Shown here piece by piece: positions 7,569 to 10,943 of a stretch of 20,803 nt of DNA; position 1 is the first letter of the stretch; every line of letters begins with the position of its first letter. The notes under the pieces were generated by a model. It was given only the letters and a program-made list of their open reading frames with translations. It did no database searches and was not told where the DNA came from. The DNA comes from a virus. Its lineage: Duplodnaviria > Heunggongvirae > Uroviricota > Caudoviricetes. Position numbers and translations under genes: made by a program. The DNA is taken from IMG/VR virus record IMGVR_UViG_2690316131_000021; one strand, written 5' to 3'.

Positions 7569-7865
7569 TCAGAATTCCATCTGGATTTGTTCAGAACGCT
7601 CGGTTGCCGCCGGGCGTTTTTTATTGGTGATTCCATCAAGCGCATACTTAAAAGCCCTGCTAATCGGACTGATGTCTGATGCCATTCCGAAAGCACACAG
7701 GACCGAAGCAATAAATCTCCAGTCCGTTCTGCTTATCTTCGATTCATGACAGCCAATCATCTTTGCCAGACCGCGCTGGGTAAGCGTTGACAGGTTGATG
7801 AGTAAATCCGTTTCTGCGCGATCAACGTCGCGCTGGGATAGTTTGCTGTAACTTGTTTGTGTCAT
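7569..7865 (-). CDS. cII: CII-like transcriptional activator
   Basis: 98 aa; C-terminus ...ITNKKRPAATERSEQIQMEF is lambda-like, N-terminal part divergent. Confidence 0.75.
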   Translation of the reverse strand: MTQTSYSKLSQRDVDRAETDLLINLSTLTQRGLAKMIGCHESKISRTDWRFIASVLCAFGMASDISPISRAFKYALDGITNKKRPAATERSEQIQMEF

Positions 7866-7950
7866 TTCTTAATATTTCCAATAGTGAATAGTTAGTTGAA
7901 AGGTATGCGTGGAAACGCATATGGCCTTAGTTGGTCAGATATATTGGGAC

Positions 7951-7965
7951 TCGCTTTGTCAGCGA
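7951..7965 (-). promoter_or_regulatory. nutR boxB hairpin (GACAA loop, P22-type)
   Basis: - strand reads TCGCTGACAAAGCGA between cro and cII; same loop as the nutL hairpin. Confidence 0.5.
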
Positions 7966-8006
7966 CGTAGGACGAATGTCCATTGTGAAAAGAGTGGATC
8001 CGCTTA

Positions 8007-8222
8007 TTAAGCGGCTTGGTGTTCCGGCGGGAACACGTCATCAAGACTGACTTTTGCGCCGAACTTGTTTAGGCACGCAACAAGAGCACGGCATGTTTTA
8101 AGGTCTGGGAAGCGACGACCAGATTCCCAATGTCCGATAGCCCCCTGTGTGCATCCAACAGCCTTAGCAAGGGTTGTTTGAGAGATCTTCAGTGACTCTC
8201 GATATTTTCGTAGGTTGCTCAT
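8007..8222 (-). CDS. cro: Cro-like repressor (HTH, 71 aa)
   Basis: MSNLRKYRESLKISQTTLAKAVGCTQGAIGHW...; GGAGGG SD; divergent from cI. Confidence 0.8.
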   Translation of the reverse strand: MSNLRKYRESLKISQTTLAKAVGCTQGAIGHWESGRRFPDLKTCRALVACLNKFGAKVSLDDVFPPEHQAA

Positions 8223-8248
8223 ATGCCCTCCATAGTAACCATGAAACA

Positions 8249-8277
8249 ATAATACGATATGTACTTTTGGAATGCAA
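8249..8277 (-). promoter_or_regulatory. pR promoter (-35 TTGCAT, 17-nt spacer, -10 TATTAT) with operator-like AGTAC motif in the spacer
   Basis: Read on the - strand in the cro-cI intergenic region. Confidence 0.55.
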
Positions 8278-8334
8278 TCGAAAAAATACATCTTGTGCAT
8301 GGATGGTTTTAGTACGGAGCGTAATAATGAGGGT

Positions 8335-8994
8335 ATGAAAATGAAATGGTATGAACTGGCTAGATCCAGAATGAAAGAACTCAGCATAACTCAAGAGAAG
8401 TTAGCTGAAGAGCTTGGTATGACGCAGGGTGGAATTGGTCACTGGTTGCGCGGATCTCGTCATCCATCTCTTGACGAGATTGGTGTGGTGTTTAAGTACC
8501 TTGGTATTAATAACGTCTCATTCAACCACGACGGTACATTTTCACCTGTTGGCGAATACTCATCAGCCCCCGTTAAAAAACAATATGAGTACCCTGTTTT
8601 TTCTCATGTTCAGGCCGGGATGTTCTCGTCTGAGCTTAGAACCTTTACCAAAGGTGATGCGGAGAGATGGGTAAGCACAACCAAAAAAGCCAGTGATTCT
8701 GCATTTTGGCTTGAGGTTGAAGGTAACTCAATGACCGCACCAACAGGTTCCAAACCCAGTTTTCCTGACGGGATGTTAATTCTTGTTGACCCTGAGCAGG
8801 CTGTTGAGCCAGGTGATTTCTGCATAGCCAGACTTGGGGGTGATGAGTTTACCTTCAAGAAACTGATCAGGGATAGCGGTCAGGTGTTTCTACAGCCACT
8901 AAACCCACAATACCCAATGATCCCATGCAATGAGAGTTGTTCCGTTGTGGGGAAAGTTATCGCTAGTCAGTGGCCTGAAGAGACGTTTGGGTGA
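8335..8994 (+). CDS. cI: CI-type prophage repressor; non-lambda N-terminal domain, lambda-identical C-terminal domain
   Basis: From [15 protein letters not shown] to the end it matches lambda CI as recalled; start is ATG 8335 or 8341 (ORF track begins 8272). Confidence 0.85.
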
Positions 8995-9064
8995 TGAATG
9001 GCTAAATGTCTCCTAATAAAAACAGCAATCATTTGAAATTATTAATAATTATAGAGGCTTAGTC

Positions 9065-10063
9065 TTGGAAATCAGCACGGCGGTTATTCATTCCGAAGAA
9101 GATGCTTTGCGTTTTGTTGAGATGTACATCGCTGGGCAAGATCTTCCTGATGGAATATCATTTGAAGGGTGGCCTAACTTAACCTTCCGTCTTACTGGTG
9201 ACAAATTTCATGGCAGTTTGACTCCTTCTGTCATGAAGGGTTTTGTTGAAATGCAGGCCCAAATAAACCGAGCTTATGCATTGTTAAAGTACGGAGTTCC
9301 TGACCCAAGAAAGCTTTCAAAAGAAGAGAAGGAAGCTATCGAAATTCAGGTGAATGTTGAGAATGGCTCGTCCTTGATAGAAGTTAATATGGATGGGTTC
9401 ATGGGTGAGGTTATACAAACTGCGGTGAGTAAAGTGGGCCCTCAAGAGATCGTTATTACAGTTTTAGGGGTAGCTCTTATATGGGGCGGCGTCGTCCTAT
9501 TCAAAAAATATCTAGAAGACCGCAAAGAGATTCGCATGGCAGAAGTAAAAAGCGAGTCTGAGCGTGAACACCTTGCGACCATGCGCTTCATGTCTGAGCA
9601 GGAAACAAAACGAAGTGAATTATTGACTCAGATTATTAGCGAAAAACCCAAGCTAGACAACATGGAAAGACTTGCTCATGACGCAAAAACCGACATAGTT
9701 AAATCATTTGTCAAGGCTGATACAGCTCAGATTGATGGCGTTGTATTGGATGCAGATCTATCCAAAACCCTCACTACAAATGCAAGGCGGAAATCAATGG
9801 AGATCCGCCTTGATGGAAATTATCGCATTGAAAAGGTTGACTCCACTGATCCAGAGAGCTTCAAAGTGCAAGTGAGAAATGTTGACTCCGATCTAAGAAT
9901 ATCGTGCATAGTACAAGATGTTTTTCTCGACGCATCCGAGCATAAAAAAGCTCTTCAGCAAGCTGAGTGGGATAGAAAACCAGTTCATTTGTCAATCAAC
10001 GCAAAAGAACTAGATGGTGAAATAAAGTCCGCGATAATACTTTATGTCAAAGAGATAACATAA
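9065..10063 (+). CDS. Unknown 332-aa protein with one predicted transmembrane segment, in the rexAB position
   Basis: AT-rich ORF directly after cI, same strand, TTG start with AGAGG SD; hydrophobic stretch IVITVLGVALIWGGVVLF; followed by a terminator. Confidence 0.6.
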   Translation: MEISTAVIHSEEDALRFVEMYIAGQDLPDGISFEGWPNLTFRLTGDKFHGSLTPSVMKGFVEMQAQINRAYALLKYGVPDPRKLSKEEKEAIEIQVNVENGSSLIEVNMDGFMGEVIQTAVSKVGPQEIVITVLGVALIWGGVVLFKKYLEDRKEIRMAEVKSESEREHLATMRFMSEQETKRSELLTQIISEKPKLDNMERLAHDAKTDIVKSFVKADTAQIDGVVLDADLSKTLTTNARRKSMEIRLDGNYRIEKVDSTDPESFKVQVRNVDSDLRISCIVQDVFLDASEHKKALQQAEWDRKPVHLSINAKELDGEIKSAIILYVKEIT

Positions 10064-10070
10064 TCCTCAT

Positions 10071-10096
10071 CCCGGCCTCAGCGCCGGGTTTTCTTT
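10071..10096 (+). terminator. Rho-independent terminator ending the cI operon (t_imm position)
   Basis: CCCGGC-ctcagc-GCCGGG followed by TTTTCTTT. Confidence 0.6.
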
Positions 10097-10282
10097 GCCT
10101 CACGATCGCCCCACCTAAAAACACATAACCAATTGTATTTGTTGAAAAATAAATAGATACAACTCACTAAACATCGCAATTCAGATCTCTCGATCACCTC
10201 CCAAGCCACTCAACCCTGCAAAATATAACCCCATAAAATACAAAACGTTATAAAAAACCAATCATATTTAGAACATTTTGTA

Positions 10283-10311
10283 TTGACTCAATAAAGTACA
10301 CATCGTACTAT
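10283..10311 (+). promoter_or_regulatory. pL promoter (-35 TTGACT, 17-nt spacer, -10 TACTAT) with operator-like AGTAC-N5-GTACT in the spacer
   Basis: Near-consensus sigma70 elements about 250 nt upstream of N. Confidence 0.6.
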
Positions 10312-10379
10312 TTAGCCATCAGCGGGATGCACCACTCACCAGGGCGGTGAATATACAACGATTCGAATATGAATCTACG

Positions 10380-10394
10380 GCGCTGACAAAGCGC
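10380..10394 (+). promoter_or_regulatory. nutL boxB hairpin (GCGCUGACAAAGCGC)
   Basis: Perfect 5-bp stem with GACAA loop between pL and N; boxA not found. Confidence 0.5.
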
Positions 10395-10559
10395 AATAAC
10401 CAAAGTGAACTTTGGGGTGTGGTGAAGGGTTCATGGACGGGAATATGTCGCACGTAAAGCGGCGAGGCCTGCGGGACTATTGCCGAATTGAAGTAGGCCG
10501 AAACAGGTCGAAATGGGTCTCCCACCTACCACACCACCAAAGTTCATCAGGAGGTCTAT

Positions 10560-10943
10560 ATGACACGCAGAACTCAGTTCAAAGGCAATTCACGTTCTCG
10601 TCGTCGTGAGCGTTTAAAGGCAAAGGCATTAGCTAACGGCGTGCTGGCCCGCGAAGAAGCAATAAGTTCAGAAGTATTACACCGCCCTACTCTAAGCAGA
10701 GCGCAGATTCAGGCTAAAGGTACTCACGAAACGCCTGAGCGCATAGAAGACGCTAAGCCAATTAAGTTCATGGCACAGGACGTGATCTGGCAACAGAAAG
10801 AATACAGACGCAATCTGGAGCGAGCGGCCATTGTGTACGCGAATGAGTTTGGACATAAGCAACCAGAAACTGGTGTATGTCTTCCAAACGTAGCCATTTA
10901 CGCGGCAGGCTACCGGAAATCCAAACAACTGACGGCGAGGTGA
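10560..10943 (+). CDS. N: N-type antiterminator with arginine-rich motif (P22 gp24-like)
   Basis: N-terminal GNSRSRRRERLKAKALA and C-terminal YAAGYRKSKQLTAR; strong CAGGAGG SD. Confidence 0.75.
   Translation: MTRRTQFKGNSRSRRRERLKAKALANGVLAREEAISSEVLHRPTLSRAQIQAKGTHETPERIEDAKPIKFMAQDVIWQQKEYRRNLERAAIVYANEFGHKQPETGVCLPNVAIYAAGYRKSKQLTAR

Follow-up and report, generated by a model that had tools for sequence, protein, structure and literature searches.

Composition of the immunity region of a lambdoid prophage in comparison with known phage modules

The 3,375-bp region at positions 7569-10943 of the virus record IMGVR_UViG_2690316131_000021 is very probably a standard lambda-style genetic switch of a lambdoid E. 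coli prophage, built from four pre-existing exchangeable modules. The four are an immunity core of the VT2-Sakai type (about 7998-8583, plus OL at 10236-10311), an HK97-type antitermination set made up of N and both nut sites, a cII body of the HK97/VT2 type together with its PRE site, and a lambda-type replication block, oop-O-P-ren. The whole record, 20,803 nt long, is referred to here as the window, and all coordinates are window positions. Here, we describe the modules and their boundaries, the matched pairs formed by N with both nut sites and by CI and Cro with six operators, and the occurrence of the region elsewhere. All of its parts, except for a cargo gene coding for 332 amino acids (aa), are module types that have been described before, and the assembled region already exists unchanged in public genomes. 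As judged from the sequence, every cis/trans pair examined appears to be internally matched. The region illustrates modular evolution in lambdoid phages cleanly, and has little significance beyond annotation. The units exchanged as a whole are the immunity core (cro, the operators and the cI DNA-binding domain), the N-nut set and the oop-O-P block, and the seams that seem to be 'intragenic' sit at functional borders, namely the cI domain linker, the 3' end of oop inside cII and the start of the PL transcript.

Module boundaries and occurrence in public genomes

The window as a whole is a prophage at att-lambda: its final ~1.3 kb correspond to ybhC in the best genome matches, and the lambda int-xis-att segment matches the window at 98%. 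The gene order, obtained from the listing of open reading frames (ORFs) and from direct reading, is P, O (minus strand), cII (minus), nutR, cro (minus), OR, cI (plus), the 332-aa ORF (plus), a terminator, OL/PL, nutL and N (plus), with the early region being reversed relative to the lambda map.

We mapped the segments by sliding-window identity to lambda, P22, HK97, mEp234, VT2-Sakai and two E. coli prophages; features of HK97 and of mEp234/HK106 were taken from the annotation in their GenBank records. The segment 5608-7630, comprising ren, P, O, oop and the last 20 cII codons, matches lambda best (95.7% overall, 92-100% over 7400-7630). It is followed at 7631-7997 by the cII body, PRE and nutR, for which HK97, mEp234 and VT2-Sakai are the best matches (mostly 95-100%). 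For cro, OR and the N-terminal domain of cI (7998-8583) no match was found in lambda, HK97 or P22, while VT2-Sakai is 92% identical. The C-terminal domain of cI (8584-8995) is ~96% identical to lambda and HK97, and 88-98% identical to VT2-Sakai per 60-nt window. The segment of the 332-aa ORF (8996-10060) occurs in no named phage and is 100% identical in some E. coli prophages; the Timm region (10061-10230) is shared; and OL together with PL (10236-10311) is nearest to VT2-Sakai (72-84%). Finally, nutL, N and the next gene (10316-11643) match HK97 at 98-100%. A first-pass annotation of this DNA had spoken of lambda-type flanking modules. This is correct for the right flank (oop, O, P and ren, 95.7%), whereas the left flank is of the HK97 type to about 11643 and lambda-type only from 11605 on (cIII, kil, gam, bet and exo; 97%).

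The same annotation had described a mosaic with recombination seams inside genes and had proposed to map them by sliding-window identity, which places the breakpoints at 7627-7634 and 8584. Relative to the type phages the region is indeed a mosaic, with boundaries inside cI and cII; however, the seams are inherited ones and lie at functional borders. When the region is compared with lambda and P22 alone it looks hybrid: cI in its C-terminal domain and cII in its tail resemble lambda, and the boxB loops resemble those of P22. Moreover, the region is not, in the literal sense, identical to a single well-characterised phage, since no phage record covers at least 80% of it. These features could be expected of a recent intragenic recombinant between P22 and lambda, in which a hybrid cI would provide a new operator specificity on a lambda chassis. 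Such an origin is nevertheless highly improbable. P22 DNA is limited to patches of 33-94 nt at 72-94% identity, and the N gene is that of HK97. The cI N-terminal domain, cro and the operators are of the VT2-Sakai type (92-97% in DNA), found in 14% of complete E. coli genomes. The cI seam is present in VT2-Sakai as well, and the cII seam on hundreds of contigs. Since the exact cII and cI occur on many contigs and the full region is 100% identical elsewhere, we conclude that the seams were inherited and not made in this prophage.

The occurrence of the whole arrangement was followed through contigs on which the exact 231-aa CI is encoded; ten loci were compared. The order P-O-cII-cro-cI-ORF332-N is shared by four of the ten, with 0, 1, 2 and 3 mismatches over 7569-10943 and no gaps (99.9-100%). 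These come from the E. coli draft assemblies GCA_049873545.1, GCA_032280865.1, GCA_049562715.1 and GCA_012301465.1, and in GCA_049873545.1 the entire 3,375 bp are 100% identical. The nutL-N segment is 98.2-100% identical to the window in all ten loci, and the cargo between cI and Timm differs among them, being ORF332, RexAB, or DUF3024 with two ORFs. Among complete E. coli genomes, a single one covers at least 80% of the region, and it does so without the cI2c core described below. The combination is thus uncommon in finished genomes, yet it is neither unique nor an assembly artefact. In E. coli genomes, the places that match the window number 4 at the median and 23 at most, and a repeat-bounded deletion in the O iterons could be an assembly collapse, both of which might suggest a chimera assembled from two or more co-resident lambdoid prophages. 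We give this explanation practically no credence, as four independent assemblies have the same order and junctions at 99.9-100%, their flanks matching as well over 8.5 kb, and each junction coincides with a functional boundary (the PL start, the oop 3' end and the cI domain linker).

The immunity core

The cro gene (8007..8222, minus strand; 71 aa) is of the VT2-Sakai type ('cro4'); its product contains an HTH_3 domain and shares 68 of its 71 residues with VT2-Sakai Cro (96%). The cI repressor gene (8341..8994, plus strand) encodes 217 aa from ATG 8341, with HTH_3 and Peptidase_S24 (PF00717, 100 bits) domains. CI is 96% identical to VT2-Sakai CI over the full 217 aa, compared to 69% for lambda CI, and an 11-residue stretch within its HTH_3 domain is identical to that of VT2-Sakai. 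While the N-terminal HTH domain is of the VT2-Sakai type, from 8584 on the S24 autocleavage domain is of the lambda/HK97/VT2 type, and it is 96% identical to lambda in DNA. This C-terminal domain aligns residue for residue with lambda CI, including VQAG/MF, GNSMT and FKKL, so that both the Ala-Gly site and the Ser/Lys dyad are present. The position at which cI had been said to turn lambda-like was accurate: it is 8584, the Tyr of QYEYPVF, the first residue of which is Q and not E as had been written (EYEYPVF is lambda's own sequence).

The operators OR1 (8250-8266), OR2 (8284-8300) and OR3 (8310-8326), lying within 8249..8326, were assigned by homology to the annotated operators and promoters of VT2-Sakai, and so was PR (TTGCAT-17-TATTAT, minus strand, with the -35 at 8272-8277 and the -10 at 8249-8254). 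On the other side of cI, OL3 (10236-10252), OL2 (10269-10285) and OL1 (10294-10310), within 10236..10311 on the plus strand, were obtained from alignment with the VT2-Sakai operators, and PL (TTGACT-17-TACTAT, 10283-10311, plus strand) from a promoter scan. OR1/PR and OL1/PL form a 37-nt inverted repeat. Each of the six 17-mers differs from its counterpart among the annotated VT2-Sakai operators (three OR and three OL) by 1-2 substitutions. The half-site core A5-C6 is invariant in 24 of 24 half-sites, the consensus half-site being nA(G/A)TAC(A/G). The E. coli SCU-104 prophage carries exactly the same six operators. The left edge of the core is marked by the leader start CATCAGC.GGA.GC (10312..10330, plus strand), which is conserved in four compared phages and is followed by HK97-type sequence.

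When the core 7998-8583 was searched alone, 63 phage records with at least 80% coverage were found. The identity is 96-97% for vB_EcoP-720R6, Dewey, Louie and phi458, and 92-93% for VT2-Sakai, Stx2 phage II, Stx1 converting phage, Nil2, 1717, 2851, 2B8 and ev017. Among complete E. coli genomes, 776 of 5,426 (14%) contain it. The exact Cro protein was found on 516 contigs and the exact cI protein on 172, 161 or 13 contigs, depending on the start codon called. In the literature, this repressor has been named 'cI2c' and is paired with 'cro4'; the lambda CI carboxy terminus is common to cI2c, whose amino terminus is distinct (Smith et al. 2012, PMC3430580). In the epsilon-34 paper, the repressor N-termini of L, VT2-Sa and Nil2 are regarded as related (PMC2629481). 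By sequence, then, cro, the operators and the CI DNA-binding domain belong to the known VT2-Sakai/Nil2/Stx-phage 'cI2c/cro4' immunity type. The 'hybrid cI' is the usual form of this type, and its seam is a domain boundary inherited by all members, since the same repressor and seam are seen in the literature, in VT2-Sakai and in the other members.

This outcome does not agree with the new operator specificity that the first-pass annotation had proposed. The search it had suggested, of the cI N-terminal domain among known immunity types, returns the VT2-Sakai 'cI2c' type, so the domain is not new; CI and Cro are 96% identical to those of VT2-Sakai, the operators are 1-2 bases off, and the same core is widespread in complete genomes, as given above. 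A new immunity specificity was also considered on the grounds that, in one 60-nt window, the identity of OR to VT2-Sakai drops to 78%. It was rejected, as the differences lie between operators or at variable operator positions, with A5/C6 and the 11-residue CI HTH stretch unchanged. For prophage typing, the element belongs to the cI2c/cro4 immunity group, which includes Stx phages, and this membership may affect superinfection by Stx phages.

In a lysogen, CI dimers on OR1/OR2 and OL1/OL2 would repress PR and PL, and PRM would transcribe cI and the 332-aa gene as far as the Timm terminator. The C-terminal domain shared with lambda CI would give dimerisation, cooperativity and RecA-stimulated self-cleavage at QAG/MF after DNA damage.

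The start of cI deserves a separate remark. Alternative in-frame starts lie at 8335, 8299 and 8272, and ATG 8341 has the best Shine-Dalgarno spacing: the GAGGG at 8329-8333 is spaced better for this ATG, which PRE transcripts could use. A putative PRM -10 (AATAAT, 8323-8328, plus strand) overlaps OR3; transcription from it would begin close to the A of ATG 8335, in which case the cI mRNA would be leaderless. The lambda cI mRNA is leaderless. Public annotations start cI at 8272, 8299 or 8341, and also at VT2-Sakai's equivalent of 8341.

N, the nut sites and the cII-oop-O block

The N antiterminator (10560..10943, plus strand; 127 aa) is of the HK97 type. All but 2 of its 127 residues agree with HK97 N (98% aa identity; 98-100% for the DNA of the gene), and it scores 57.5 bits against N_peptide PF25694, where the cut-off is 27.9; the exact protein occurs on at least 1,000 public contigs. 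Its arginine-rich motif, GNSRSRRRERLKAK, occupies residues 10-23. The likeness to P22 gp24 that had been pointed out, in the arginine-rich motif and the C-terminus, is real: both proteins have G-N-x-x-(S/T)-R-R-x-E-R in the motif and LP.VA.YAAG.RKSKQ.TAR at the C-terminus. The label 'P22-type N and nut' is valid for the class of boxB loop and arginine-rich motif, but the gene itself is HK97 N and, by sequence, not an orthologue of gp24. A sequence search of the PDB with N returned nothing relevant, the P22 and lambda N peptides being too short or too divergent for phmmer.

Both boxB hairpins reported earlier with a GACAA loop were confirmed by sequence and fold. The nutL boxB (10380..10394, plus strand) reads GCGCU-GACAA-AGCGC, GCGCTGACAAAGCGC, and is identical in the nutL of P22, HK97 and mEp234, whereas the nutR boxB (7951..7965, minus strand), UCGCU-GACAA-AGCGA or TCGCTGACAAAGCGA, is identical to the HK97 and the mEp234-annotated nutR boxB. 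Each consists of a 5-bp stem and a GACAA pentaloop, with folding energies of -7.1 (nutL) and -5.6 (nutR) kcal/mol, and the outermost pair differs in a compensatory way (G-C in nutL, U-A in nutR). The 13-nt core CGCTGACAAAGCG has exactly 2 copies in the 20.8-kb window, versus 0.04 expected by chance. The GenBank records of mEp234 and HK106 annotate TCGCTGACAAAGCGA as the nutR boxB and GCGCTGACAAAGCGC as the nutL boxB, just as in the window. Further elements of nutR are boxA, CACUCUUUU (7988-7996, minus strand), placed by alignment with HK97, mEp234 and VT2-Sakai, and a spacer hairpin GGAC-AUUC-GUCC (7970-7981, minus strand), seen by fold and alignment.

The HK97-type nutL-N block is at least 99% identical in 45 phage records; among the records listed, all matches begin at 10311-10317, just past the PL -10, and this start is the left boundary of the immunity core. 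All of the fetched loci with an intact HK97-type N carry the boxB 13-mer twice, one per nut position. VT2-Sakai, in turn, has a 933W/H-19B-type N (57% aa identity), its nutR boxB, UCGCU-GAAA-AGCGA, is one C shorter, and its nutL loop is GAAA too; otherwise its nutR is 90-98% identical to that of the window, with the same stem and with the spacer hairpin kept. Since VT2-Sakai, with a different N, has GAAA loops on a shared nutR backbone, the type of boxB loop tracks the type of N, as expected of a matched pair. For the H-19B N, binding to a tetraloop boxB has been described, at a nutR that has two hairpins (PMC3526286). The difference of a single loop C (GACAA vs GAAA) between the HK97-type and 933W-type nutR may hint that a single-base indel could turn one class of N specificity into another. 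N produced from PL would bind the GACAA boxB RNA at nutL and nutR through its arginine-rich motif, and the RNA polymerase thus modified would read through terminators.

The SCU-104 prophage (L007, 6118-6400), the nearest complete-genome relative of the immunity core at 99.4%, has a G to A change in the nutL boxB stem, GCGCTGACAAAACGC, and lacks an annotated N CDS, so the N system of this copy may well be decaying. Its nutR boxA has the same variant as the window.

The cII gene (7569..7865, minus strand; 98 aa; Pfam Phage_CII PF05269, 116.9 bits) is of the HK97/VT2-Sakai type in residues 1-78 and of the lambda type in residues 79-98. The protein is 87% identical to HK97 CII and 89% to that of VT2-Sakai, and its last 20 residues are identical to lambda. 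Informative-site alignment and sliding identity place the boundary between the lambda-type module (oop, O, P) and the HK97-VT2-type module (cII body, nutR) at 7627..7634. This bears out the earlier observation of a switch to lambda identity within cII, as the lambda match stops at 7630, at Ile79 of '...GITNKKRPAATERSEQIQMEF' (ITNKKRP...). The exact cII protein is found on 227 contigs and belongs to a cluster of 472 members at 90% identity.

The lambda-type oop antisense gene (7511..7626, plus strand) overlaps the cII 3' end on the opposite strand and is 96-100% identical to lambda up to 7630. Its promoter Po (TTGAGT-17-CATAAT) lies at 7511-7539 and its transcript spans ~7546-7623, while the promoter/terminator scan shows a strong terminator, with a stem at 7593-7620 followed by a T run (plus strand). 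The P22 record annotates an oop promoter and terminator at the equivalent place, and Po and the oop terminator of the window map to those of lambda oop (lambda coordinates 38676-38599). The last 20 cII codons are lambda-type because they overlap oop, whose 3' end is the edge of the lambda block. The cII seam is thus the natural edge of the oop-O-P module, with the lambda-type block stopping a few bases past the oop 3' end. The presumed CII-binding site of PRE (7843..7856, plus strand), TTGC-N6-TTGT or TTGCTGTAACTTGT, has the position and sequence of the site annotated in mEp234. CII would act at this site to drive PRE, and the oop antisense RNA together with the lambda-type C-terminal tail would govern cII turnover.

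Several points weigh against the reading of the region as a standard switch made of known modules. Here, 'known' refers to modules and unnamed prophages, and not to a studied phage with the exact combination. Repression, immunity and antitermination, like all the biochemical activities named here, are proposed from sequence comparison and by analogy with the biology of lambda, P22, H-19B and HK97. The nutR boxA reads CACTCTTTT, with G to A at position 2 relative to the CGCTCTTTT of HK97, mEp234 and VT2-Sakai, and nutL is without a good, CGCUCUUUA-like boxA, having only GCACCACUC, as in HK97/mEp234, where it is annotated as 'putative'. Finally, the O gene (6665-7536) is frameshifted and split into two ORFs, with the breakpoint at 7148/7149, and this prophage copy may not be fully viable. 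The ori iteron array is shorter by 67 nt than in a locus that is otherwise 100% identical (L009), and by 28 nt than in lambda. The window has 3 iterons, L009 has 6 and lambda has 4, and O of L009 is intact (312 aa). The deletion, lying between direct repeats GTTTTGAGGGA, is due either to replication slippage or to assembly repeat collapse.

With O frameshifted, the ori reduced to 3 iterons and the nutR boxA altered, and with a related prophage, SCU-104, showing a mutated nutL boxB stem and no annotated N CDS, one could also think of a decaying cryptic-prophage remnant whose switch no longer works as a unit. This would be compatible with the modular origin proposed above, and we consider it unlikely: the reading frames of cII, cro, cI, ORF332 and N are unbroken and match widespread alleles exactly, both boxB hairpins and the six operators are intact, and the boxA variant is common to SCU-104.

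Cargo gene, other elements and known systems

The cargo gene (9065..10063, plus strand; 332 aa) occupies the rexAB slot, downstream of cI and upstream of Timm, and corresponds to phrog_6191 ('unknown function'). Timm itself is represented by an intrinsic terminator of the immunity transcript (10071..10096, plus strand), detected by the terminator scan and aligning with the Timm annotated in mEp234. For the 332-aa protein there was no Pfam match above the curated cut-off, including RexA/RexB, no NCBIfam family and no PADLOC defence model at E<=0.1. The gene is common in prophages of Enterobacteriaceae, the exact protein being encoded on 609 contigs from E. coli, Salmonella and Klebsiella, and homologues down to 29% identity are found across Gammaproteobacteria and in the betaproteobacterium Caballeronia. 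The AF2 model (53 sequences; pLDDT 88, pTM 0.83) has an N-terminal alpha/beta domain, long helices and a C-terminal beta domain with an OB fold. A hydrophobic helix lies at 126-141, and the protein is predicted to be membrane-anchored. Distant homologues occur in the early region of a Pseudomonas prophage, in an Oceanospirillaceae island, where a Type ISP restriction enzyme and a GmrSD fragment are the neighbours, and as a lone gene in the chromosome of a Caballeronia. The gene would be co-transcribed with cI in a lysogen. A role in exclusion or defence is plausible because the gene lies in the cI operon and distant homologues stand beside the Type ISP restriction enzyme and GmrSD; we only tentatively suggest that it could be an undescribed prophage-encoded phage-exclusion protein. 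It is a reasonable candidate for defence-gene screens.

No Rfam family match was found inside 7569-10943. Elsewhere in the window, matches at gathering score are the sok antitoxin RNA (455-629, minus strand), adjoining a hok-like region; the C4 antisense RNA with isrK and c4 a1b1 targets (3408-3606, minus strand), a P1/P7-type antirepressor control cassette; the lambda cIII thermoregulator (11650-11708, plus strand); and sRNA-Xcc1 (17254-17337, plus strand).

Among the known systems, P22 has an identical nutL boxB (GCGCUGACAAAGCGC), and both of its boxB loops are GACAA. Its gp24 shares the arginine-rich motif with N as well as 20 of the last 30 residues; however, BLASTP aligns only these 30 C-terminal residues (67% identical), and the identity over MAFFT-aligned columns is 40%. 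Moreover, the boxA-boxB spacing in P22 is ~9 nt, in comparison to 22 nt with a hairpin in the window, and c2, cro and c1 are unrelated or distant. In DNA, P22 matches the region only in short stretches, namely 33 nt at Po, 94 nt of the cI C-terminal domain (72% identical) and 68 nt at the N 3' end (75%). With lambda, the region shares the architecture of the switch, the cI C-terminal domain, the last 20 aa of cII, oop-O-P-ren (95.7%), Timm and cIII-kil-gam-bet-exo (97%), whereas the cI N-terminal domain, cro, the operators, N, the nut sites and the cII body are different, and rexAB is replaced by the 332-aa gene.

HK97, together with mEp234 and HK106, is alike from the nutL leader through N (98-100% in DNA), in both boxB, which are identical, and in the nutR spacer hairpin and the cII body. 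These phages differ in having lambda immunity (the lambda-type cI N-terminal domain, cro and operators), a different cII tail and HicAB or gp48/49 as cargo, and the replication genes of HK97 are P22-like. The phages 2B8 and PhiR5_2 match cII, cro, cI and N at ~92%, with N annotated, and carry other cargo between cI and N. In VT2-Sakai (Sp5) and phages of the Stx2 phage II/1717/Nil2/2851 type, finally, the likeness extends over cro, OR1-3, OL1-3 and the whole of cI, including its junction to the lambda-type C-terminal domain. VT2-Sakai differs from the window in that its cII tail is not lambda-type, O/P are HK022-like and other cargo lies between cI and OL, but its cII body and nutR backbone are again 90-98% identical.

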